From the NCBI GenBank assembly GCA_017458185.1, contig JAFTFY010000008.1:12315-76314 (forward strand): a stretch of 64,000 nt of DNA, read 5' to 3'. This document shows, in pieces, positions 7,253 to 56,318 of this stretch (position 1 is the first letter of the stretch; every line of letters starts with the position of its first letter). The position numbers and the translations under genes were made by a program. This stretch comes from Neisseriaceae bacterium. GTDB lineage: Bacteria > Pseudomonadota > Gammaproteobacteria > Burkholderiales > Neisseriaceae. The notes under the pieces are model-generated. The model saw only the letters and a list, made by a program, of their open reading frames with translations, was not told where the DNA came from and did not search any database.

Positions 7253-8536
7253 TTAGTTGCTCTTTTTCAAAGGTTGCAATAGCGTTATATCGTCTTCGTG
7301 CATGTCTGCTCTTTTGGCGGCGTGTTTGCTAATCACCAAACGCAGGCGATCCATTTCTTTTTTGCGACTGAGTAACTCGTCTTCTTCATCGTCCTTGCGT
7401 GATTTTTGCGGCGGACGATGTAGATAACGGTCATCGTAGTCGTCATCGCTATGGCGAGATGATACACGAGAACGGCGGTCGCGTGGGTCTTCGTCATCGT
7501 CATAGCGGCTGCGTGCAGGCAGACGATAATTGCGTTCATCGTCATAATCGTCATCATAACGGCTTCTTGGACGAGAACGGTAGCCTCGTTCGTCTTCATA
7601 ATCGTCATCATAACGACTTCTGGGACGAGAACGGTAACCGCGGTCGTCATCAAAATCGTCTTCATAACGACTTCTGGGACGAGAACGGTAACTACGGTCG
7701 TCTTCATAATCGTCATCATAACGACTTCTGGGACGAGAACGGTAGCCGCGGTCGTCTTCGTAATCGTCATCATAACGGCTTCTTGGGCGAGAGCGATAAC
7801 CGCGTTCATCTTCAAAATCGTCTTCATAACGACTTCTTGGACGAGTGCGATAACCGCGTTCGTCATCATAATCGTCATCGTCATAACGATTTCTTGGACG
7901 AGAACGGTAGTCTCGTTCGTCTTCATAGTCGTCATCATCGTAACGACTGCGAGAACGCATACGGCGTTCGTCTTTATCGTCATCACGATAGGCTTCACGG
8001 GTTTTTATTGTTGTTTTGATTTCGCTTTTTTCGCTACTTTCACCCAGTGAAGAAATTTCTGAATCTAAATCCAATGCGGGCAATTTGTTTTCATTAACAC
8101 GAGTAAGCGTAGGGTTGCGAAGCGAACGAATATCGGGTTGATGACCGAAAATCATATTTTGTTCGACATCGCTACCTAAATCGCTTGACCAGTCTAATTC
8201 GGCATGCCAAGAGAAGTCTAAATCGTGTGCCCACGGCAAAAGCACGGCTCTGCCTGGTGAAGTGGGTTCGGAATAAGTGCCTGGGAAAGGGGGCGGTTCA
8301 ATTGTGCCAGGAGCACCACGGTCATCGCGTTGAAGATAGCAATATAAACGGTTGCCGTAGGTAATGGTGCCTAAATAAGAACCATTGGGCGAATACACTT
8401 CGTTATCGTCCCACGGTGTCCAACCAATCCAGCGACTGTCGCGGTCGAATACATAACGCCGCTTGCGAAAGGCAATCCATCTGCCTGCTGAATCAAATAG
8501 ATAGTTAATGCTGACGGTTCCTGATGATGTTCTCAT
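7253..8536 (-). CDS. hypothetical protein: N-terminal W/Y/G-rich beta-type domain plus ten 18-aa Arg/Asp/Tyr-rich tandem repeats
   Basis: The start was set at the ATG at 8536, with AAGGAG 10 nt upstream. The repeat unit is RSRPRSRYDDDYEDERGY. A hairpin terminator lies at 7205-7245 on the minus strand. Confidence 0.7.
   Translation of the reverse strand: MRTSSGTVSINYLFDSAGRWIAFRKRRYVFDRDSRWIGWTPWDDNEVYSPNGSYLGTITYGNRLYCYLQRDDRGAPGTIEPPPFPGTYSEPTSPGRAVLLPWAHDLDFSWHAELDWSSDLGSDVEQNMIFGHQPDIRSLRNPTLTRVNENKLPALDLDSEISSLGESSEKSEIKTTIKTREAYRDDDKDERRMRSRSRYDDDDYEDERDYRSRPRNRYDDDDYDDERGYRTRPRSRYEDDFEDERGYRSRPRSRYDDDYEDDRGYRSRPRSRYDDDYEDDRSYRSRPRSRYEDDFDDDRGYRSRPRSRYDDDYEDERGYRSRPRSRYDDDYDDERNYRLPARSRYDDDEDPRDRRSRVSSRHSDDDYDDRYLHRPPQKSRKDDEEDELLSRKKEMDRLRLVISKHAAKRADMHEDDITLLQPLKKSN
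7421..7963 (-). repeat. 54-nt tandem coding repeat, about 10 units
   Basis: acgagaacggta recurs at exact 54-nt spacing (for example 7571 and 7625). The units translate to 18-aa R/S/P/Y/D/E repeats. Confidence 0.9.
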
Positions 8537-11210: not shown

Positions 11211-11863
11211 TTGGGTTTATGTTACAAGGTTGTTGTTGTATGTTTCAGGCTGCCTGAAAAAGTCAAAAACAAACGGATTTGTTCGCACCTGACGGTGCTC
11301 ACGATGATTTTTAAAAGCGAACTTCGTTAGAAGTGAGCAAATCCGTTTGTTAATAAAATTTTTCAGGCTGCCTGAAAGGATTTTGGGGCTTACAAAAATT
11401 CAAAATCAAGTGTCATTGCGAGCCAACGAAATTGGCGTGGCAATCTAGTTTAAGCCGACAGGCTTAAACAAACGCCATAGGCGTTTTTACGGCATTGTAG
11501 AAAGCCTTATCTGTTACTCTTATTATATAAGAAACAGTGCGTTACAACGCCTTGCGGCGTTGATAAAAAATCTTACGATTTTTTATGTGGATTGCCACGA
11601 TTTGAACCAAAGTTCAAACCTCGCAATGACACTCGGTTTAAATTCAGGCAGCCTGAAATCGTTTTGTACCGCGTGGGCAACAAGTTGCCCACCCTACGGC
11701 TGACGGTGCTCACGATAATTTTTAAAAGCGAACTTCGTTAGAAGTGAGCAAATCCGTTTGTTAATAAAATTTTTCAGGCTGCCTGAAAGGGTTTCGTCCG
11801 TTATGGTGGGCAGGAATGCCTACCCTATACGCGTTTTGGTGGGTCGAAGACCCACCCTACATA
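11211..11863. repeat. intergenic repeat mosaic (4 DUS, 3 REP-like hairpins, a 223-bp MITE-like element, a duplicated ~90-bp block)
   Basis: See findings. The blocks at about 11289-11378 and 11699-11789 are near-identical direct repeats. Confidence 0.8.
11410..11632. mobile_element. MITE-like palindromic element (GTGTCATTGCGAG ... CTCGCAATGACAC termini), copy 1
   Basis: It has 13-bp perfect terminal inverted repeats and subterminal CGTGGCAATC/GATTGCCACG repeats. A second full copy lies at 34685-34906 and a half copy at about 10370-10457. Confidence 0.75.
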
Positions 11864-13720: not shown

Positions 13721-14740
13721 ATGAATATTCAACACAATATTGCACTTAAAAACTACAACACAATGGGTTTGGCGGTTTTCGCAAAATATTTTTACTCATT
13801 CACAGATAATGCTCAACTTGCTGATTTATTAAAAGAAATTAAAAAATATCCGCAAACTTATTTTTTGGGCGGCGGCTCGAATACGGTTTTTCTGCACGAT
13901 TTTGACGGCTTGGTGCTGCATTTGGCAACACGGGGCATTGAATATAAAAAAACAGAAAATAATCAAGTGCTTGTTACCGCACAAGCAGGTGAAAATTGGC
14001 ATAACTTTGTGCAATATACCGTGCAACAAGGTTGGTTTGGTTTGGAAAATTTAAGCCTGATTTACGGCACTGTGGGGGCAAGTCCCATTCAAAATATTGG
14101 GGCGTATGGCGTGGAAGTGAAAGACCGTATTCGCCGTGTGTTTGCGACCGATACGCAAACAGGCAAATCTTTGATTTTACATAATCATGAATGTTGTTTT
14201 GCATATCGCAACAGCATATTCAGACAGCCTGAAAATAAACATTTGTTGATTACAGCGGTTGAATTTCAATTAGATACCGCGTTTCAACCGCAGTTAGGCT
14301 ATGGCGATATTGCCGCAACCGCTGAAAAAATGGCAAATGGCAAGCCCATAACCGCACAAATCGTTGCCAATGCGGTGATTGCAACGCGTCAAGCCAAATT
14401 GCCTAATCCTGATGAATTAGGCAATGCAGGCAGTTTTTTTCGTAATCCAATTGTTTCAAACGCACAAGCCCTTGAATTAAAACAACAATATTCTGATATG
14501 CCGATTTTCGCGGTTGATGACAAAAACAGCAAACTATCCGCCGCCAAACTGATTGATTTGGCAGGATTAAAAGGCTTTGCATTGGGCGGTGCGGCGGTTT
14601 ATCACAAACAACCTTTGGTGCTGGTCAATCAAAACAACGCCACACCGCAAGATATTGTCGATTTATGTCAATATATTCAAAAGGTTGTGCAGGAAAAATT
14701 TGCAGTAAGCATACAGCCTGAACCTGTGTTTGTTGGATAG
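13721..14740 (+). CDS. murB: UDP-N-acetylenolpyruvoylglucosamine reductase
   Basis: An FAD-binding GGGSN motif is present, and the AGSFFRNP and C-terminal domain are colinear with MurB. Confidence 0.95.
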   Translation: MNIQHNIALKNYNTMGLAVFAKYFYSFTDNAQLADLLKEIKKYPQTYFLGGGSNTVFLHDFDGLVLHLATRGIEYKKTENNQVLVTAQAGENWHNFVQYTVQQGWFGLENLSLIYGTVGASPIQNIGAYGVEVKDRIRRVFATDTQTGKSLILHNHECCFAYRNSIFRQPENKHLLITAVEFQLDTAFQPQLGYGDIAATAEKMANGKPITAQIVANAVIATRQAKLPNPDELGNAGSFFRNPIVSNAQALELKQQYSDMPIFAVDDKNSKLSAAKLIDLAGLKGFALGGAAVYHKQPLVLVNQNNATPQDIVDLCQYIQKVVQEKFAVSIQPEPVFVG

Positions 14741-15117
14741 TGAGCAATGAGTAATGAGTAATGAGCAGTGAGCAATGATTATGTTTTGCCTTGCGGCAAA
14801 ACAGATTAGATTGAGATAACGCTTCGATTTTGTTTCAGGCTGCCTGAAACAGCGTTCAACGAGCCGTAAGGCGAAGTCAAAATATCTAACTTACTGTAAT
14901 TATTTTGTTTTTTTTATTGCTACACGGATTGGGAAAACCTAACGGTTTTCCTTTCAATGTTTTTGATTTACAGATTTTGCGTAAGCAAAATCGAATCCGT
15001 GTGGCATTGAATATTTTTTCAGGCTGCCTGAAAATAAAATCGAAGCGTTATCTAAAAAACATTCGTCAAGCCATAGGCTTGATATAAAACCCATTGCTCA
15101 CTGCTCATTGCTCACTG
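14741..15117. repeat. heptamer-capped palindromic element, copy 1 (with a nested MITE-like insertion at about 14886-15013)
   Basis: The left cap is (TGAGYAR)x5 at 14741-14778 and the right cap is its reverse complement at 15092-15117. AGATAACGCTTCGAT/ATCGAAGCGTTATCT form internal inverted repeats. DUS lie at 14834 and 15018. Confidence 0.8.
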
Positions 15118-15119
15118 TA

Positions 15120-16073
15120 TCAAGGCAAAGCCGCAATCGCTTGCGTGAAATAATCAAAAAACGCATTATCATCAACCGCGTAGCACCATAAAGCGTTTGC
15201 TGTTTTGCCGCTTTTGCCGTGCCAATCCACACTGCTTGCTCCTTCGCATACGCCAAACGAAGTATCCACAGCCACAAACACTTCTTTATAAGAAAACAAC
15301 TCTGGACGCACCGCCGCTGCTACGGCACACGGGTCATGCAATGGTCCGCCGTTTAAGCCAAATTGTTGTGTATCAAATCTGCCATAACTTTGCAAAATAT
15401 CCGCTACGCGTTTGCCGTTTTCATTTGGCAAATCACGCAATTTTTGCATTCGCTCCTTTGTGGCTAACGCTTTGTGGGTTACATCTAACGGCACAATGCG
15501 GATTTTTGCCCCGCAATTTAGCACAATTTGTGCCGCCAATGGATCAACAAAAAAATTAAAATCCGCATTCGGCGTAACATTGCCCGCTTCCAAAAATGTG
15601 CCGCCCATAATCACAATTTCTTTGATACCTGCCACACAATCAGGATACAACAAAAACGCCAAAGCCAAATTGCTTAAAGGACCAATCGGCACCAGTGTTA
15701 TGCTGTTTTTTTCGGCAGCCAAAAGCGTTTGGGCTAAAAACACGGCGGCGTGTTCGTTGTGCAAGGGCGTTTGTGGCTCGTGCAATGGCACGCCGTCCAA
15801 ACCTGTTTTGCCATGCACTTCTTCGGCGGTTAAAAGGGCTTTTGCAAGCGGTTTTACTGCCCCTTGATAGACTGGTAAATCACAGCGTTTCGCCCAATCA
15901 CAAATAATGCGGGCATTTTTTTGCGTGAAATGTAAAGGCACATTTCCTGCTACGCAGGATAATGCTAACAATTTGATTTGATTTAGTTTATCTAAACCAA
16001 ATGCCATTAAAATGGCGGCTGCATCGTCTTGACCTGGGTCGGTGTCGATAATGATTTGGGGGATATTTGACAT
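15120..16073 (-). CDS. nucleoside hydrolase (inosine/uridine-preferring family)
   Basis: The N-terminal DTDPGQDDAAAI is the DxDxxxDD signature. Confidence 0.9.
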   Translation of the reverse strand: MSNIPQIIIDTDPGQDDAAAILMAFGLDKLNQIKLLALSCVAGNVPLHFTQKNARIICDWAKRCDLPVYQGAVKPLAKALLTAEEVHGKTGLDGVPLHEPQTPLHNEHAAVFLAQTLLAAEKNSITLVPIGPLSNLALAFLLYPDCVAGIKEIVIMGGTFLEAGNVTPNADFNFFVDPLAAQIVLNCGAKIRIVPLDVTHKALATKERMQKLRDLPNENGKRVADILQSYGRFDTQQFGLNGGPLHDPCAVAAAVRPELFSYKEVFVAVDTSFGVCEGASSVDWHGKSGKTANALWCYAVDDNAFFDYFTQAIAALP

Positions 16074-21080: not shown

Positions 21081-21163
21081 AATTATTTTCCTATATAAAA
21101 GGGGTTATTTTATCCTGTTTTGGCGTGTTTTCGATAGTTAAGATATTTTCAGGTAGCCTGAAA

Positions 21164-21388
21164 GCAGTTAGCAGTTAGCAATGAGCAATGAGCAATTTAA
21201 GTGTTTCGTTTTGCCTATCGGCAAAACAGTTTGTTTTTAGATAACGCTTCGATAAAACTTTCAGGCTGCCTGAAACGAAGTAGGGCGAATGAAGTGAAGT
21301 TAAAAGCAAAATCGAAGCGTTATCTTAAAATAATCCGTTTTGTCGTAAGACAAAACGAAATAATTGCTCACTGCTCATTGCTAATTGC
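21164..21388. repeat. heptamer-capped palindromic element, copy 2
   Basis: The caps are gcagtta gcagtta gcaatga gcaatga (21164-21198) and the inverted array at 21362-21388. A central DUS lies at 21260, flanked by agataacgcttcgat / atcgaagcgttatct. Confidence 0.8.
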
Positions 21389-21472
21389 ACAGCCTTTGCA
21401 CTGCACAATGTATTCTACCAAAATCGCATTATAATACGCACCTTTTACAACAAACATAATGGGAGTACTATC

Positions 21473-23970: not shown

Positions 23971-24162
23971 CATCTACTGTAATCATTTTGTTTTTTTATT
24001 GCCACACGGATTTGGAAAACCTAACGGTTTTCCTTTAAATGAGCAATAGCCGTATATGTGCTTTGCCACTTACGAATATGCGTATTGCGAGCCGTGTGAA
24101 GTACGGCGTGGCAATCCTTTAAAGATTTTCCGTTAGGAAAATCGAATCCGTGTGGCATTGAA
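23971..24162. mobile_element. MITE-like element of the ATTGCCACACGGAT family, carrying an inserted CATTGCGAG hairpin module
   Basis: The termini are ttattgccacacggattt... and ...aatcgaatccgtgtggcattg. Other copies lie at about 14886-15013, 50451-50572 (inverted) and 23129-23204 (half). Confidence 0.7.
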
Positions 24163-28644: not shown

Positions 28645-28735
28645 TGGCGGAAGCGGTGAGATTCGAACTCACGGTGGGCTACTAACCCACGACGGTTTTC
28701 AAGACCGCTGCATTAAACCGCTCTGCCACGCTTCC
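28645..28735 (-). tRNA. tRNA-Ser (anticodon UGA)
   Basis: The reverse complement reads GGAAGCGTGGCAGAGCGGTTTAATGCAGCGGTCTTGAAAACCGTCGTGGGTTAGTAGCCCACCGTGAGTTCGAATCTCACCGCTTCCGCCA. The anticodon loop is CTTGAAA, the variable arm is long and the T-arm is GTTCGAATC. Confidence 0.92.
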
Positions 28736-28793: not shown

Positions 28794-30122
28794 ATGTTTG
28801 TTTGTTCTCAACAAGATTTATTTCAGTTTGCCGAAGATGCGTTGCGTTACGCCAAACAAGGCGGTGCAGACGGTGCGGCGGTTGATGTGTATGAATCCAC
28901 AGGTTTGGAAGTGGCTGTGCGTATGCAGGAAACCGAAAAAGTGGCGTATCGCCGCGATACGGGCGTGGAAGTAGCGGTTTTTGTGGGCAAGAAAAAAGGC
29001 TATGCTTCAACCGCCGATTTGTCGCCACAGGCTTTACAGCAAACGGTTGCCGCCGCTTTGAATATCGCTCGATTTACCGAAGACGATGAATGTTCAGGGC
29101 TGCCTGAACCTGAATTTTTGGCAAGCGATTTGTTCGATTTGGATTTGTATCACCCCTATACGCAAACGCCTGATCAGGCGATTGAATGGGCAAAACAGTG
29201 CGAAAATGCGGCTTTGTCGCAGGATACGCGTATTACGAACAGCGAAGGCTCAGAAGTGTCAAGCGATGTGTCGCAGTCGGTGTTTGCGAACTCTTTGGGC
29301 TTTGCGGCGTATGATAGACGCACGCGTTATGCTATGTCGTGCGTGGCTGTGGCAAGCGATAACGGCGATATGCAAAGAGACTATTGGTCGGACGCAACTC
29401 GTTCTGTTGATGATTTAGCGTCTGCTGATGAAATCGGTAAAACCGCTGCCCAGCGGGTTTTGGCTCGCTTAAATTCAGGCAGCGTTAAAACGGGGGTGTA
29501 TCCTGTTTTGTTTGACCGTATGGTTTCAGGCAGCCTGATTGCCCATTTGGCAGGGGCTTTGTCAGGCGGTGCGTTGTATCGCAAAAGCAGTTTCTTATGC
29601 GATTCTTTGGGTAAAAAAATTCTGCCAGATTGTGTTCAATTACGAGAAGAGCCGCACTTAAAAAAGGCGTTTTCGGTTGCCGTGTGCGATGACGAAGGTG
29701 TGGCAACCAAGCCACGCACGGTGATTGATAAAGGTGTTGTTCAAGGTTATTTTTTAAGCACATATTCGGCTCGCAAATTAGGCTTAAACACCACAGGCAA
29801 TGCAGGCGGTGTGCATCATTTGTGCTTAAAACCCACAGTGGCAACCCAAAAAGACTTGTTAAAACAAATGGGTACGGGCTTAATTGTTACCGAGTTAATG
29901 GGGCAAGGGGTGAATTTGCTGACAGGCGATTATTCGCGTGGTGCGTCTGGCTTTTGGGTGGAAAACGGCGTGATTGCGTATCCTGTGCAAGAAATCACCA
30001 TTGCAGGCAGATTGCAAGATATGTTCGCCCAAGTATTAGGCATTGCCGATGACGCACGCAAACACGCCGCACACAGTGTTGGGTCGATTTTGGTAGAGCA
30101 GATGACGGTAGCAGGGCAGTGA
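28794..30122 (+). CDS. pmbA: metalloprotease PmbA (TldE)
   Basis: 442 aa, colinear with the PmbA/TldD family (..GDYSRGASGFWVENG..). Confidence 0.92.
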   Translation: MFVCSQQDLFQFAEDALRYAKQGGADGAAVDVYESTGLEVAVRMQETEKVAYRRDTGVEVAVFVGKKKGYASTADLSPQALQQTVAAALNIARFTEDDECSGLPEPEFLASDLFDLDLYHPYTQTPDQAIEWAKQCENAALSQDTRITNSEGSEVSSDVSQSVFANSLGFAAYDRRTRYAMSCVAVASDNGDMQRDYWSDATRSVDDLASADEIGKTAAQRVLARLNSGSVKTGVYPVLFDRMVSGSLIAHLAGALSGGALYRKSSFLCDSLGKKILPDCVQLREEPHLKKAFSVAVCDDEGVATKPRTVIDKGVVQGYFLSTYSARKLGLNTTGNAGGVHHLCLKPTVATQKDLLKQMGTGLIVTELMGQGVNLLTGDYSRGASGFWVENGVIAYPVQEITIAGRLQDMFAQVLGIADDARKHAAHSVGSILVEQMTVAGQ

Positions 30123-30123
30123 T

Positions 30124-30379
30124 AGTGAGTAGTGAGCAGTGAGTAGTGAGCAGTAAGCAGTGAGTAGTGAGCAGTTATTAAGTCAAGCCTTGCGGCTTGA
30201 CGGATATTTTAGAACGGACGACCACATAGGGTCGTCCCTACGCAATACTTTTCAGGCAGCCTGAAAGAATAAATCGAAGCATTATTAAAATTTAACCTGT
30301 TTTGCCTGACAAGGCAAAACATAAAGCCTAATTGCTCATTTCTAATTGCTCATTGCTAATTATTTAACTGCTCATTGAC
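30124..30379. repeat. heptamer-capped palindromic element, copy 3
   Basis: The left cap is (AGTGAGY)x7.5 at 30124-30175 and the inverted cap lies at 30330-30379. A central DUS is at 30251 and a REP-like hairpin is inserted at 30216-30242. Confidence 0.8.
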
Positions 30380-39696: not shown

Positions 39697-40539
39697 TTAA
39701 CGGTATGGAATCACAATGCTGTCGGTATTTTGTTCAGCCAAACGCTTTTTCAAGGCGTAGGCTTGTTCGGTATCAATCGAACCCGACCGCACACGATAAT
39801 AAGTTTTGCCGTCTCGAACCGCTGTTTCAATATGCGTGGAAACGCCCAACATACTTAATTTAGCGCGTTGATTTTCGGCTTGTTCCTGTGTGGCAAACGA
39901 GCCTGCCTGAACCACGCTTTTGCCTTCAACAACAGGTTTGAAAACACTTTTTTGAGCGGTTTGTTTTTCAGGCTGCTTGTTGTTTTTTTGTTCTATTCGA
40001 CCAATTAAATTGCCTAAATCATCGTCATCTTGATTTTTTTTCGCTTGTTTGTCTTGGTCGATTTTGGCGATTAAATTGCCCAAATCGTCTTTTTTCTCTT
40101 TTTCAGGTTTTTTATCTGCTTGTTTTTCTTGGTCTTTTTTACGAATAAATTCGCCCAAAACATCGTCATTGGCTTTTTTGGGTTCTTCTTTTTTGGCGAT
40201 TTCTTTTTTATCGGTTTCGGTCGTGCTTGCCACTGTATTTTCAGGTGTGGCTGGCGTTTCAGGCACAACTTCGGTTTGCAAGGGCGGCACGCCAGCGTCT
40301 TGCGGACGAATAATTTCCGTAGTTACAGGCGTTGCTGTGCGTTGTGGGCGTTGATATTCATTGGGGTCGTTGCGTTCAACCTGCGGCTGTTGCAGAGTAT
40401 TGTGTTTGTTGTTCATATACCACATCAACACCGCAACCGCACCGACTGCCAAAATCATACCAATCAAAATGCCTGTAATAATGCCATTTCCGCCGCCGCC
40501 ACGAGATGAACGGCGTCTGCTACTTCTTCTTCTTGCCAT
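39697..40539 (-). CDS. SPOR-domain cell-division protein (FtsN-like)
   Basis: An N-terminal basic tail plus TM is followed by a Lys/Glu/Asp-rich linker and a C-terminal SPOR domain (VVQAGSFATQEQAENQRAKL..YYRVRSG). Confidence 0.8.
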   Translation of the reverse strand: MARRRSSRRRSSRGGGGNGIITGILIGMILAVGAVAVLMWYMNNKHNTLQQPQVERNDPNEYQRPQRTATPVTTEIIRPQDAGVPPLQTEVVPETPATPENTVASTTETDKKEIAKKEEPKKANDDVLGEFIRKKDQEKQADKKPEKEKKDDLGNLIAKIDQDKQAKKNQDDDDLGNLIGRIEQKNNKQPEKQTAQKSVFKPVVEGKSVVQAGSFATQEQAENQRAKLSMLGVSTHIETAVRDGKTYYRVRSGSIDTEQAYALKKRLAEQNTDSIVIPYR

Positions 40540-40583: not shown

Positions 40584-40792
40584 TAGTGAGTAGTTAGCAG
40601 GGAGAAGTTAGCAGTGAGCAGTGAGCAGTTGTTTTGTTTTGCCTGACGGCAAAACGGATTATTTTTAGGTAACGCTTCGATTGTGCCTTTCAGGCAGCCT
40701 GAAAAAAAAATCGAAGCGTTATCTAAATATATCCGTCAATCCGCAGGATTGACATAACAACTGCTCACTGCTCACTACTAACTTCTCACTGC
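40584..40792. repeat. heptamer-capped palindromic element, copy 4
   Basis: The caps lie at 40584-40630 and 40758-40792. The central DUS at 40689 is flanked by aggtaacgcttcgat / atcgaagcgttatct. The right cap contains the zapE stop codon. Confidence 0.8.
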
Positions 40793-41931
40793 AAAGCCAA
40801 ATGCGGCAAAGCCAAATATTCTGCCGATTGCATTTCCTGCATACGGCTTACCGTGCGGGTAAATTCATTCGCAAAACTGCCGTGTGTGTAAAGTTCGTTC
40901 AGGCTGCCTGAAATGGTTGCACAGCATTTCACACGGTAATCATACGCCACATCAATAAACCAAGTGAGCCGTCTGGCTTCGTTTTGTTCGGCGGCACTCA
41001 TAGGGCGAATGCCCGAAATAAAAATAAAGCGAAATTTTTTTGCCAAACGCAAATAATCTTCTTGCGAGCGAGCGGTGAAAAAAAGTTCTTCAAAATCAAA
41101 CCAAATGGCTTCATTCGTTTGCCCAAGACAAGCGATTTTTCTACCTAAAATTTCTATGTGTTCAGGCAGCCTTTTAGAACCTTCGGTCAGACGAGAAAAC
41201 AGAGCAGATAAGGCTTTTTCGCCGTCTTCATCCACAGGAAAATACACATCGGCATTTGTCAGGGTTCGCATACGGTAATCATTGCCGCCATCAACATTGA
41301 GCACCGTCAGTTGCTGTTTGATTAAATCAATCGTGGGCAAAAAGTTGTGGCGATTCAAACCGTTCGGATACAAAGCGTCTGGGGCGTAGTTAGAAGTCAT
41401 CACCAAAACCACGCCGTGAAGAAATAAACCTTCTAATAATCTGCCCAAAATCATTGCGTCCGCAATGTGGCTAATGTGAAATTCATCAAAACACAAAACA
41501 CGCACTTCACCCGCAATTTGTGCCGACAACGCCATAACAGGATTTTCCTGATTTTTGAGATTGTTCAGCCGCTGATGAATTTCCGACATAAACGCATGAA
41601 AATGCACGCGTTTTTTGCGAATATAAGGCAAGCAACCGTAAAAAGCGTCCATTAAAAAACTTTTACCACGCCCGACACCGCCCCAAAAATACAAACCTTT
41701 GGGCGACACAGGCGAACGCAAAGAACGCCCCAAAAAACGATTGCGTTTTTCTTTGAAATCAATCAGTTGATGCCAAAGTTGGTCAAGGGCGTGTATGGCT
41801 TTTTCCTGTGCAGGGTCTTTGACAAAACCCGCCTGCTTGGCGGCTTCACGATACCACGACAGCGGCGTGTGGCGGTCAAATGACGGTGCGGTGAATGTGT
41901 TTGGATTTGTCATAGCGTGTTTCTTCTTCAA
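40786..41931 (-). CDS. zapE: cell division protein ZapE (AFG1-like ATPase)
   Basis: GLYFWGGVGRGKSFLMD is Walker A and LCFDEFH is Walker B. Confidence 0.9.
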   Translation of the reverse strand: MKKKHAMTNPNTFTAPSFDRHTPLSWYREAAKQAGFVKDPAQEKAIHALDQLWHQLIDFKEKRNRFLGRSLRSPVSPKGLYFWGGVGRGKSFLMDAFYGCLPYIRKKRVHFHAFMSEIHQRLNNLKNQENPVMALSAQIAGEVRVLCFDEFHISHIADAMILGRLLEGLFLHGVVLVMTSNYAPDALYPNGLNRHNFLPTIDLIKQQLTVLNVDGGNDYRMRTLTNADVYFPVDEDGEKALSALFSRLTEGSKRLPEHIEILGRKIACLGQTNEAIWFDFEELFFTARSQEDYLRLAKKFRFIFISGIRPMSAAEQNEARRLTWFIDVAYDYRVKCCATISGSLNELYTHGSFANEFTRTVSRMQEMQSAEYLALPHLALQ

Positions 41932-50387: not shown

Positions 50388-50450
50388 GTTTAATGGTTAT
50401 CGCAATGACAGGTTTTATTTTTCAGGCAGCCTGAAAGGATAGATTGATTC

Positions 50451-50572
50451 AACGCCACACGGATTCGATTTTAGTTACGCAAAATCTTTAAAATATAATT
50501 TATGGGAATGGCGTGAGCCATTCCGAATCCGTGTAGCAATAATAAAATATCATAATTACAATAACTTAAATA
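50451..50572. mobile_element. MITE-like element of the ATTGCCACACGGAT family (inverted copy)
   Basis: The termini are caacgccacacggattcgatttt... and ...ccgaatccgtgtagcaataataaaa. Confidence 0.65.
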
Positions 50573-50689
50573 TATTTCAGGCAACCTGAAACTATTTTAA
50601 CTTCGCCTTACGGCTCGTTTAAATTGTGGTTTGATGACTGCGTCATCTCTTTTATTTGCTTTGCAAATAAAAGATTTCACTTCGTGAAA

Positions 50690-51797: not shown

Positions 51798-53027
51798 ATG
51801 CGTAAATTGCTTGTTACAGAATTAGAAAATTTAATTGACATACCTGATTATCTTGATACGGTTGAGCAAAAATATAATTATCTGCTTGAACTTGAAGAAT
51901 TAGATTTGTCATGCAACGAAAATCTTATTACTTTACCCGATAGTATTTGTCAATTAAAACAAGCAAAAAAATTAAATTTAGAAAATTGCGAAAATCTTAC
52001 TACGCTATCTGAAAATATTGGTCAATTACAACAGTTAAGAGAATTAAATTTATCTGCTTGTGAAAATTTAATTTCTTTACCTGAAAGTATTGGTCAGTTA
52101 AAACAATTAGAATATTTGGATTTATCAGATTGTTATAGTCTTAATAAATTACCTGAAAATATCGGTCAATTAGAACAATTAAAAGAGTTATATTTAGAAT
52201 ATTGTAGTGAATTAACAGTACTTCCTGAAAGCATTGGAGAATGTAAAGAAATAGAAAAATTAAATTTGCTTTATTGTGATAATTTAACTCAACTTCCTGA
52301 AAGTATTGGAAAATTAAAACAGTTAAAAGAATTAACTTTAATTGAATGTAAAAGTTTAACAATGTTACCTGAAAAAATTGGAGAATTAAAACAATTAAAA
52401 ACATTAAAATTGGAAGGTTGTAGTAATATTATTCAATTACCAAAGAGTATAGGTCAATTAGAAGAGTTGCAATCATTAAATTTAGATTGTGAAAAGTTAA
52501 TTCAGTTGCCTGATAGTATTGTACAATTAAAAAAATTACAATCTTTATATTTACATTTGGATAATGATAATAACATTAAATTATTTGATGAGATTGTTCA
52601 AAAATTACCCGAATTATCTGTTTTACAGTTACATATTGACTGTGAGTTTTTACCAGAAAATATTATCAATTTGAAAAAATTAAAAGAATTGGATTTATCA
52701 TTTTCTCATATTACTACACTTCCTGAAAATATTGAGCAATTAAAAATACTTCAAATATTAAATTTATCGTTTTGTGAAGAACTTATTTCTTTACCTGAAA
52801 GTATTGGACAGTTGCAAAATTTGCAAATATTAAATTTATACCATTGTAACAATCTCATCACATTACCAAAAAGTATTGGTGAATTAAAAAATTTACAAGA
52901 ATTGGATTTAAGGGAGTGTACCCAGTTAAAATATCAAAATAATCTTCGTCATTTTCCCAAAGGTGTTATTAAACAAAACAGTGTAACAAACGGAATAGTG
53001 AAAAAACTTTTGAAATTTTTTGAATAA
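51798..53027 (+). CDS. leucine-rich repeat protein (about 14-15 units of a 24-aa Cys-containing LRR)
   Basis: The repeated unit is L.[22 protein letters not shown] (72-nt period). The gene is very AT-rich, has no obvious signal peptide and has no other domain. Confidence 0.8.
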
Positions 53028-56099: not shown

Positions 56100-56105
56100 A
56101 AAGAC

Positions 56106-56318
56106 ATTCCCTGCGGTGTTCGATTTCAGCATATACTCCTTTGAACCAATACATTCGCTTTTGGGGGTGAAAGTTTGATGGGCGTGCGCGTTCCGTGTGA
56201 ATGTACCCGAAATCAGACGGCACTTACCGACCTTACCACAAGGTTCAAGCGATTTTCGCTGTAACGGCACTCGCGGGGTATTTAATATTTAAAGACGGCT
56301 GTGCCGTCTTTTTGTTTT
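56106..56318 (+). ncRNA. candidate structured sRNA of about 210 nt (possibly 6S-like; identity unverified)
   Basis: The promoter sits just upstream. Long-range pairings CCCUGCGG/CUCGCGGG, UCAGC/GCUGA, UUGAACC/GGUUCAA and UACAUUC/GAAUGUA give a rod with a large internal loop. The terminator gacggc-tgt-gccgtc plus a T-run lies at 56293-56318. No credible ORF is present. Confidence 0.5.

Follow-up and report, generated by a model that had tools for sequence, protein, structure and literature searches.

A lineage-restricted composite intergenic repeat of heptamer arrays, heterotypic hairpins, and a DNA uptake sequence, with a possible gene-end role, in uncultured Neisseriaceae

Correia elements and the dRS3/NIME mosaics are non-coding, high-copy intergenic repeats of the Neisseriaceae, which have inverted ends, are adjacent to genes, are co-transcribed, and form mosaics. 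The REP, BIME, and REPIN repeats consist of short hairpins that are arranged in inverted pairs and mosaics after genes, and roles in termination and mRNA stability have been proposed for them; a GTAG start is typical of REPs moved by tyrosine transposases. Heptameric simple-sequence repeats have been encountered at hundreds of intergenic sites per genome, including GGGAATC in Xanthomonas and GGGGA(T/C)T in Nostoc (Rehm et al. 2015, PMC4692102). Xanthomonas genomes contain approximately 185 GGGAATC arrays, mostly of four units and with 70-75 convergent inverted pairs, which are positioned at most 50 bp from a stop codon or overlap it; from one related species to another these arrays vary in length but retain their type, single or pair (PMC4692102). 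In marine Beggiatoaceae, cyanobacteria, and Bacteroidetes, direct repeats of the heptamer TAACTGA have been described, which in the forward direction contain stops in all three frames and hence end open reading frames (ORFs) (MacGregor 2015, PMC4679880). For the DNA uptake sequence (DUS), an overlapping simDUS/kingDUS dyad has been reported for Simonsiella muelleri, and inverted DUS pairs have been linked to transcription terminators (Frye et al. 2013, PMC3630211). This paper describes a composite intergenic repeat that unites such parts and of which four copies are present in a 64,000-nucleotide stretch of a Neisseriaceae bacterium (GenBank assembly GCA_017458185.1, contig JAFTFY010000008.1, positions 12,315 to 76,314 of the forward strand; hereafter the window).

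The family is a composite, non-coding, and lineage-restricted intergenic repeat of approximately 185-215 bp. The preferred reading, to which a probability of about one half is assigned, is that the repeat spread as a whole and that each of its halves acts as a gene-end module, the two together forming a two-sided terminator or insulator with an uptake sequence. From left to right, a partial unit (CAG or CAA) precedes a (TGAGCAR)n array, followed by a first hairpin with a T-rich tail, the arm AGATAACGCTTCGAT, and a palindromic DUS, after which come the arm ATCGAAGCGTTATCT, a second hairpin of the other type, and a (YTGCTCA)n array. This order of parts had been proposed in an earlier reading of the window that was made without database searches (the sequence-only reading), and it was recovered at all four loci (Table 1), the relatedness of which is borne out by the collinear alignment of their eight half-elements. 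The double-heptamer pattern TKAGYARTKAGYAR occurs 21 times in the window (0.01 expected), always inside the four loci, Tandem Repeats Finder reported a period of 7 at 8/8 array ends, and the 15-nt arm is confined to the same loci, apart from two 3-mismatch matches at chance level. The central motif TTCAGGCWGCCTGAA had been correctly taken for a DUS: it is the general palindromic DUS of this genome, and five of its 63 copies in the window belong to the elements. Several other details required correction: the element is not a simple symmetric palindrome, the two hairpins of one element usually being of different types; the arrays contain 3-7 rather than 4-8 units; and the hairpin loops range from 3 to 8 nt instead of being tetraloops throughout. 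The true ends of the element include a partial unit, YAR on the left and YTR on the right. The second repeat that had been noticed inside copy 1 is indeed an insert belonging to another dispersed repeat family, with relatives at positions 23975-24162 and 50447-50619 of the window and at several loci in metagenome-assembled genomes (MAGs). For copy 3, a nested REP-like hairpin had been claimed; the hairpin is present and replaces the left arm, whereas its REP-likeness (GTAGGG-type) was judged by eye only, and a second copy of it was not found outside the ortholog. The left end of copy 2 is abutted by a degenerate solo DUS.

The hairpin stems begin with GT(T/C), and a perfect 8-bp stem is present in 82 of 90 distinct halves, despite at least nine different stem sequences, with a mean of 7.9 paired stem positions as compared to 4.05 when left and right stem arms are permuted. 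The canonical copy folds as a four-way junction (RNA, -121.6 kcal/mol, z -15.8; single-stranded DNA, -76.6, z -15.9), in which the arrays pair as the outer stem, next to the two short hairpins and the long arm-DUS-arm hairpin. In a census of approximately 110 distinct arrays with 468 units and a modal length of four units, positions 1, 3, 4, and 6 of the unit are near-invariant, position 5 is C, T, or A, and position 7 is G or A, while position 2 is G in 334, T in 118, A in 16, and C in none of the units; a stop triplet is contained in 93% of them.

The absence of any described family with this architecture, as claimed in the sequence-only reading, is too strong a statement in view of the convergent heptamer pairs near stops (PMC4692102) and the all-frame-stop heptamer TAACTGA (PMC4679880). 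The family itself is undescribed, and its novelty lies in the fixed composite of heptamer arrays, heterotypic hairpins, arms, and DUS. Like the Xanthomonas repeats, the arrays consist of tandem 7-nt units, approximately four per array, which are non-coding, occur in convergent pairs near stops, and vary in length by whole units; the Xanthomonas unit, unlike that of the element, is G-rich and quadruplex-forming and, as read from the unit itself, has no stop triplet. A hairpin-arm-DUS core between paired arrays has not been described for Xanthomonas, and every array in the window is part of a composite element. TAACTGA is similar in being a stop-containing heptamer in short tandem sets that are patchily distributed across phyla, but its sets are mostly located just upstream of start codons, are almost never inverted (one indirect repeat), and have no palindromic core (PMC4679880). 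The central motif of the element is the simDUS/kingDUS dyad (PMC3630211), and the solo DUS dyads of the window (63 per 64 kb, a count that includes the five of the elements) are without arms, hairpins, and arrays. With the Correia and dRS3/NIME repeats the element shares its intergenic, non-coding, and high-copy character, its inverted ends, and its mosaics with other repeats; it differs from them in lacking a TA duplication, in size and internal design, and in having tandem arrays as its ends. Neither the Correia 26-bp terminal repeat TATAGTGGATTAACAAAAATCAGGAC (at most 3 mismatches) nor the dRS3 motif ATTCCC-N8-GGGAAT (at most 1 mismatch) has a match in the window. As in REP, BIME, and REPIN sequences, short hairpins are kept by compensatory changes and occur in inverted pairs and mosaics, but the hairpins of the element lack the 5' GTAG of REPs, and no REP-associated tyrosine transposase was seen in the element flanks of the window or among repeated ORFs around the elements. 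A separate REP-like family of GTAGGGTGGG...CCCAC hairpins with a GTAG start is present at positions 110-131, 11673-11697, and 11839-11860 of the window (3 matches versus 0 expected). Of the features of MITEs (miniature inverted-repeat transposable elements), small size, a non-coding nature, many copies, and terminal inverted repeats are observed, and target-site duplication is not. In Rfam, nothing was found at the elements at the gathering score, and a relaxed threshold returned only sub-threshold generic long-hairpin microRNA models; a string search of a literature library for the arrays returned no paper.

The distribution of the family is narrow. A scan of 185,579 species, one genome each, with the combined arm and DUS pattern yielded 64 loci, all in uncultured Neisseriaceae MAGs, which originate from sheep omasum, water-deer reticulum, and yak reticulum. 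Among these species genomes the element was found only in the MAG species RGIG6059, RGIG5993, RGIG9199, RGIG9985, and RGIG6070, one of these five, of the same kind as the others, having been added by an arm-pair pattern with a free centre, which yielded no further species. Two scans of JGI metagenome contigs gave 0 and 1 matches, the one being a 1.2-kb contig of unknown source, and in a plasmid collection the array part alone was matched, in Sulfurovum and Pseudomonas, where the annotation was uninformative. The window is approximately 96-98% identical to RGIG6059, and its PmbA shares only 57% identity with the best match outside the clade (Neisseria, Alysiella); the lineage is deep and little known. 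The presence of four copies in 64 kb suggests a number per genome in the order of one hundred. Across the fetched loci, the succession of array, hairpin, arm, DUS, inverted arm, hairpin, and inverted array was seen dozens of times, and approximately 110 half-elements with the same order of parts were present in those of the first four MAG species found.

It was the whole element of approximately 200 bp that spread in the ancestor of this small clade of ruminant-forestomach Neisseriaceae, reaching a density of about one copy per 16 kb. Two classes of hairpin, the GTTTTGCC type and the GTCAAGCC type, are distinguished, and the same class is present at both ends in 7 of 36 elements, as compared to 18.1 expected (P = 2e-4). 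Independent halves would pair randomly, and the heterotypic hairpins therefore argue that the elements descend from a single master copy of which the two ends were distinct. Both orientations are equally common, and no association was detected of hairpin type with the orientation of the flanking genes, nor of element polarity with gene direction or array subtype. The two ends of an element are correlated in array subtype, either CAA or CAG (29 versus 12, p = 0.012), and the numbers of units at the two ends are uncorrelated. Two pairs of a full and a half element, in which the missing half ends at the array boundary, had prompted the view that the half-element is the mobile unit and inserts beside a DUS; this was rejected in view of the non-random heterotypic hairpins, and a half-element is more plausibly what remained after the other half had been lost or overwritten.

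Today, most copies are passed on at fixed orthologous positions, and one element is present at the same site in three species with approximately 84-98% flank identity and with stems, arms, and DUS intact. The number of heptamers varies between strains in whole units: relative to the RGIG6059 and RGIG5993 orthologs, the arrays of the window show length differences of 7, 14, or more nt, invariably an integral number of units, as well as changes at the three variable unit positions, while the interiors are identical. The arrays thus behave as heptamer microsatellites. Between more distant species hairpin modules have been replaced, and halves are missing or have been overwritten by other small repeats, sometimes with a remnant of the outer array left behind. 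Moreover, at L007 6330-6600 of RGIG9199, as compared to L043 and L040, the sequence to the left of the element stems from one locus and that to its right from a different locus, the breakpoint being inside the element, which indicates that copies recombine with each other. The earlier description as a recombining, multi-copy, non-coding element is supported by these mosaics, module exchanges, and inter-copy recombination. The join at L007 also represents an interspecies chromosomal rearrangement. An invertible segment between the inverted arrays was considered for L041 and L050, which have swapped hairpin types, and was rejected: the orientation of the centre is unchanged and the loops are not the same, which is better explained by module replacement.

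Concerning function, the role most likely from the sequence is that of a two-sided gene-end module, which would either serve the host or be tolerated by it. Each half would act on transcription arriving from outside, where the ribosome would have stopped already at the native stop codon, or would do so within one to three heptamers, after which the polymerase would meet an inward-facing hairpin of 8-11 bp with a T-rich run behind it, before reaching the long arm-DUS-arm hairpin; the two back-to-back halves would constitute a two-sided terminator or insulator that also carries the uptake sequence. The inward hairpins and their T-rich tails make a two-sided terminator plausible. A T-rich inner side (five or more T among the 9 nt that follow the extended stem) is present in 60 of 90 halves and an A-rich outer side in 1 of 90, so that the hairpins look like terminators for incoming rather than outgoing transcription. 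A consensus terminator scan flagged three of the four hairpins of copies 1 and 2, all reading inward, and for murB, the RihA-like gene, pmbA, and zapE, which end at copies 1, 3, and 4, no terminator candidate other than the element is present after the gene.

Several observations weigh against the preferred reading. Termination is deduced from consensus features only, approximately one third of the hairpins are without a good T-tract, and copy 2 lies between two divergent promoters. When 44 full elements were compared with the other spacers of the same loci, the shift toward convergent genes was mild, and neither convergent enrichment nor divergent depletion was significant (12/26/6 versus 49/236/49 convergent/tandem/divergent, p = 0.10). 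Solo DUS hairpins already seem to act as terminators beside stops, and the additional modules may be dispensable. Gene conversion between copies, and not selection, could be the cause of the conserved stems and arms. In addition, no target-site duplication was found, there being no direct repeat outside the YAR...YTR ends of 41 full elements; no clean empty site was found, as the comparison of filled and empty sites gave full-versus-half pairs only; and no transposase with matching ends was found in these fragmentary MAGs, in which insertion sequences assemble poorly.

These last three results also bear on the possibility that the family is a purely selfish non-autonomous transposon (MITE- or REPIN-like) without a host role, of which the subterminal hairpins or heptamer ends are read by an undetected enzyme, e.g., an IS200/IS605-type or REP-associated tyrosine transposase. 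Such a transposon would be in agreement with the high copy number, the occurrence in both orientations, the non-coding nature, and the terminal inverted repeats, as well as with the compensatory changes that keep the hairpins, as in REP and IS200/IS605 ends, with the two distinct ends that heterotypic hairpins provide, and with the GTAGGG-type REP-like hairpins in the same genome. However, besides the lack of a target-site duplication and of a filled-versus-empty pair, a search for repeated ORFs in approximately 450 kb around the elements returned orthologs only and no multi-copy transposase, and elements remain at orthologous sites across species at approximately 84% identity with stems and arms intact. 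A purely selfish nature is consequently regarded as rather unlikely.

The sequence-only reading had interpreted the termini as all-frame translational stoppers, and selection of the arrays for this property would allow landing at gene ends and shield the structure from ribosomes. The contacts with stop codons on which this was based are present: the murB TAG (14738-14740) abuts the array, the TGA of the RihA-like gene (15120-15122) and the first strict unit are 5 nt apart, TAG TGAG comes after the pmbA TGA (30120-30122), and the zapE TGA is the TGA of an array unit. A coincidence of the caps with gene stops was also observed in the wider set of loci, where, among 65 array ends pointing toward the 3' end of a gene, 22 supply the stop of a long ORF, the offsets being -3, -10, and -17 and corresponding to the TGA of units 1, 2, and 3; in 24 more the stop is within 10 nt, giving 46/65. 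Besides this phasing and the high proportion of stop-bearing units, the stopper hypothesis is favored by the absence of C at position 2, the only change at this position that removes the stop, and by a complementary strand that is largely stop-free. Closure of all three frames, however, is incomplete. It stands for five of the eight arrays in the window, while those at 40761-40795, 30332-30359, and 21364-21391 close two frames, because TGAG units (stop offset 0) and TTAG units (offset 1) place their stops one base apart. In the wider set 61 of 111 arrays close all frames, and in the test of 110 arrays this proportion (54.5%) was below the 64% obtained after shuffling units among arrays (P = 0.0085); the TTAG units, which make up 25% of all units, actively break closure, and the preference for T over A at position 2 (118 to 16) is not explained by stop retention.

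Nor are the contacts specific to arrays or associated with the rescue of a lost stop. PmbA ends in MTVAGQ, as in its orthologs, MurB and the RihA-like hydrolase have native ends within a few positions of the profile ends, and ZapE runs 13 residues beyond the profile end, which we take to be within a few codons of the usual end of the family; no stop in the window therefore appears to have been lost and rescued. Among solo DUS palindromes, 62 lie 0-10 nt from a stop and nine use their own TGA as the stop, so that tight packing at gene ends is a genome-wide property, and the stop-free GGGAATC arrays of Xanthomonas also hug stops (PMC4692102). Genes that end inside a DUS read TTT CAG GCA GCC TGA, the DUS providing the last four codons and the stop (L037 5375-5389; nine cases at distance -14); at L037, a gene for a pyridoxal-phosphate-enzyme-like protein lies between two half-elements. 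Moreover, in Microseira wollei (L105 1726-1774) an alternating TGAGCAA/TTAGCAA array is translated in frame within a 382-amino-acid ORF (NEQLAMSNEQLAISNEQLA), which demonstrates that mixed arrays can leave a frame open. On these grounds purpose-built stoppers are quite improbable, and the terminal arrays look like ordinary slippage-prone microsatellites. We infer that the array stops are a by-product of a stop-containing 7-nt unit, which make overlap with gene ends harmless without being the selected feature.

TGAGCAR arrays without the remainder of the element were encountered in at least 120 loci across many phyla in an array-alone scan of genome contigs (L065-L182), and viral contigs (L263-L322) contained 60 TGAGCAR stretches, as compared to 18 for TGACAGR, a compositionally identical control heptamer. 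In cyanobacteria, Bacteroidota, Acidobacteriota, Chloroflexota, Firmicutes, Campylobacterota, and viral contigs, arrays directly follow or overlap the stop codon of a gene read in the same direction, usually beginning 0-8 nt after that stop or over it, and some contigs have an array after nearly every gene. At several loci convergent array pairs surround unrelated cores, or else the entire spacer as far as the start codon that follows. Within 60 nt, the 5' side of the array faces the stop of a co-directional gene in 41 and a gene start in 8 cases (22 versus 3 in low-GC loci; simple ORF calls), and in viral contigs a gene 3' end is on the 5' side in 30 and on the 3' side in 5 cases, with ten viral arrays inside an ORF on the opposite strand; this gene-end bias is in part inherent, as any ORF that runs into an array of this kind has to terminate there. 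For a 2.8-kb stretch located between arrays in Microseira, the listed ORFs were inspected, without a family scan, and none could be recognised as multi-copy or as resembling a transposase. TGAGCAR arrays may conceivably represent a recurrent cross-phylum signal of gene ends or intergenic boundaries, of which the Neisseriaceae element would be the elaboration of one lineage around its DUS, a view that we consider unlikely; its cause could be a widespread trans-acting heptamer reader, or a superfamily of tiny mobile cassettes with heptamer-array inverted ends.

A related proposal is that a factor recognising 7-nt units in DNA or RNA, e.g., a cold-shock or S1-like protein, uses the arrays as its binding platforms, which would make the element a regulatory or structural site and not a terminator. 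The four near-invariant and three narrowly varying unit positions, including the unexplained choice between G and T at position 2, fit such a factor, as do the modal length of four units here and in Xanthomonas (PMC4692102), the strand-biased recurrence of TGAGCAR beside gene stops in many phyla and viral contigs, and the binding of heptamer repeats by CspB discussed in the literature (PMC4679880). No candidate protein was identified, however, closely related strains differ in the number of units, the two arrays of an element show no correlation in length, and the control heptamer TGACAGR is also present in viral contigs, at an only approximately 3-fold lower frequency. A binding platform is therefore highly improbable, and a gene-end module that spread as a whole element remains the preferred reading.

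The flanking genes named in the sequence-only reading, i.e., those encoding MurB, PmbA, ZapE, and a nucleoside hydrolase, were confirmed, and the complete set of neighbors encodes MurB, the RihA-like nucleoside hydrolase, PurD, succinate CoA-transferase, PmbA, FtsK, an FtsN-like protein, and ZapE. The parts of the four copies are listed in Table 1, together with examples from viral contigs.

Table 1. Positions of the four elements and their parts in the window, and examples of TGAGCAR arrays in viral contigs
Feature	Position	Strand	Remarks
Copy 1, whole element	14738..15122		Between murB stop and RihA-like hydrolase stop, convergent genes; nested foreign repeat
Copy 1, left array	14741..14778	+	5 units TGAGCAA/TGAGTAA/TGAGCAG; 3 frames closed
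Copy 1, left hairpin, T-type	14783..14802	+	GTTTTGCC-TTGC-GGCAAAAC
Copy 1, left arm AGATAACGCTTCGAT and palindromic DUS	14814..14848		DUS 14834-14848
Copy 1, nested insert, other dispersed repeat family	14849..15017		Two DUS copies bracket the insert
Copy 1, second DUS and right arm ATCGAAGCGTTATCT	15018..15053		DUS 15018-15032; arm 15039-15053
Copy 1, right hairpin, C-type	15065..15083	-	GTCAAGCC-ATA-GGCTTGAT; terminator-like reading inward
Copy 1, right array	15094..15117	-	3 units; 3 frames closed
Copy 2, whole element	21161..21391		Between divergent starts of purD (21080, -) and succinate CoA-transferase gene (21473, +)
Copy 2, left array	21161..21196	+	5 units; 3 frames closed
Copy 2, left hairpin, T-type	21208..21227	+	Terminator-like reading inward
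Copy 2, core	21239..21325		Arm, DUS 21260-21274, 36-nt copy-specific extra 21275-21310, arm
Copy 2, right hairpin	21334..21359	-	Variant GTTTTGTC-TTAC-GACAAAAC; terminator-like reading inward
Copy 2, right array	21361..21391	-	4 units; only 2 frames closed
Copy 3, whole element	30116..30376		After pmbA stop (30120-30122), upstream of ftsK (start 30577)
Copy 3, left array	30116..30175	+	7 strict units; 3 frames closed; MAG RGIG6059 has 2 fewer
Copy 3, left hairpin, C-type	30182..30201	+	GTCAAGCC-TTGC-GGCTTGAC
Copy 3, hairpin in place of left arm	30211..30245		GGACGACC...GGTCGTCC then CTAC
Copy 3, DUS and degenerate right arm	30251..30287		DUS 30251-30265; arm 30273-30287, 3 mismatches
Copy 3, right hairpin, T-type	30299..30320	-	
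Copy 3, right array	30328..30376	-	4 units and detached remnant 30368-30376; only 2 frames closed
Copy 4, canonical element	40585..40795		Between ftsN-like gene start (40539, -) and zapE stop (40786-40788, -)
Copy 4, left array	40585..40629	+	6 units, one (GGAGAAG) without stop; 3 frames closed
Copy 4, left hairpin, T-type	40636..40655	+	
Copy 4, core	40667..40724		Arm (1 mismatch), DUS 40689-40703, arm
Copy 4, right hairpin, C-type variant	40735..40753	-	GTCAATCC-GCA-GGATTGAC
Copy 4, right array	40760..40795	-	5 units; unit TGAGAAG supplies zapE stop; only 2 frames closed
Viral examples	L321 1280-4870; L265 1430-1700, 8716-13123; L270 5830-6050; L290		

The window contains several other repeats and RNA genes. 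A different repeat of approximately 100 bp, flanked by DUS, is present twice (11263-11362 and 11700-11773), and the segment between its copies (11378-11863), which is absent from L025, corresponds to a 487-bp insertion or deletion relative to MAG RGIG6059; additional matches to TTAGAAGTGAGCAA at 11327 and 11738 were assigned to a different repeat and not to the family described here. Tandem repeats include a 54-nt repeat at 7532-7938 (7.5 copies, 85% matches), of which the period is a multiple of three and which may be coding, 72-nt AT-rich repeats at 51918-52894 (8.7 and 2.4 copies), and, inside the FtsN-like gene beside copy 4, a 75-nt repeat (1.9 copies) and 15-nt repeats (40034-40218). A 6S RNA (56105-56283, + strand) and a tRNA gene just upstream of pmbA (28648-28735, - strand) were found at the Rfam curated score.

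That the stop-rich heptamer caps are not tuned to three-frame closure is a negative result of note. The gene-end heptamers of Xanthomonas, Nostoc, and Beggiatoaceae are extended to TGAGCAR in many phyla, and the function of intergenic heptamers, which was left open in earlier work (PMC4692102, PMC4679880), thereby becomes easier to test by comparison. The arrays provide ready-made markers for strain typing, and the elements mark recombination breakpoints and explain the heavy fragmentation of these MAGs. Finally, the element unites heptamer microsatellites, REP-like hairpins, and the DNA uptake sequence, which are usually studied apart, and adds a well-defined repeat family to a deep-branching lineage of uncultured ruminant Neisseriaceae.

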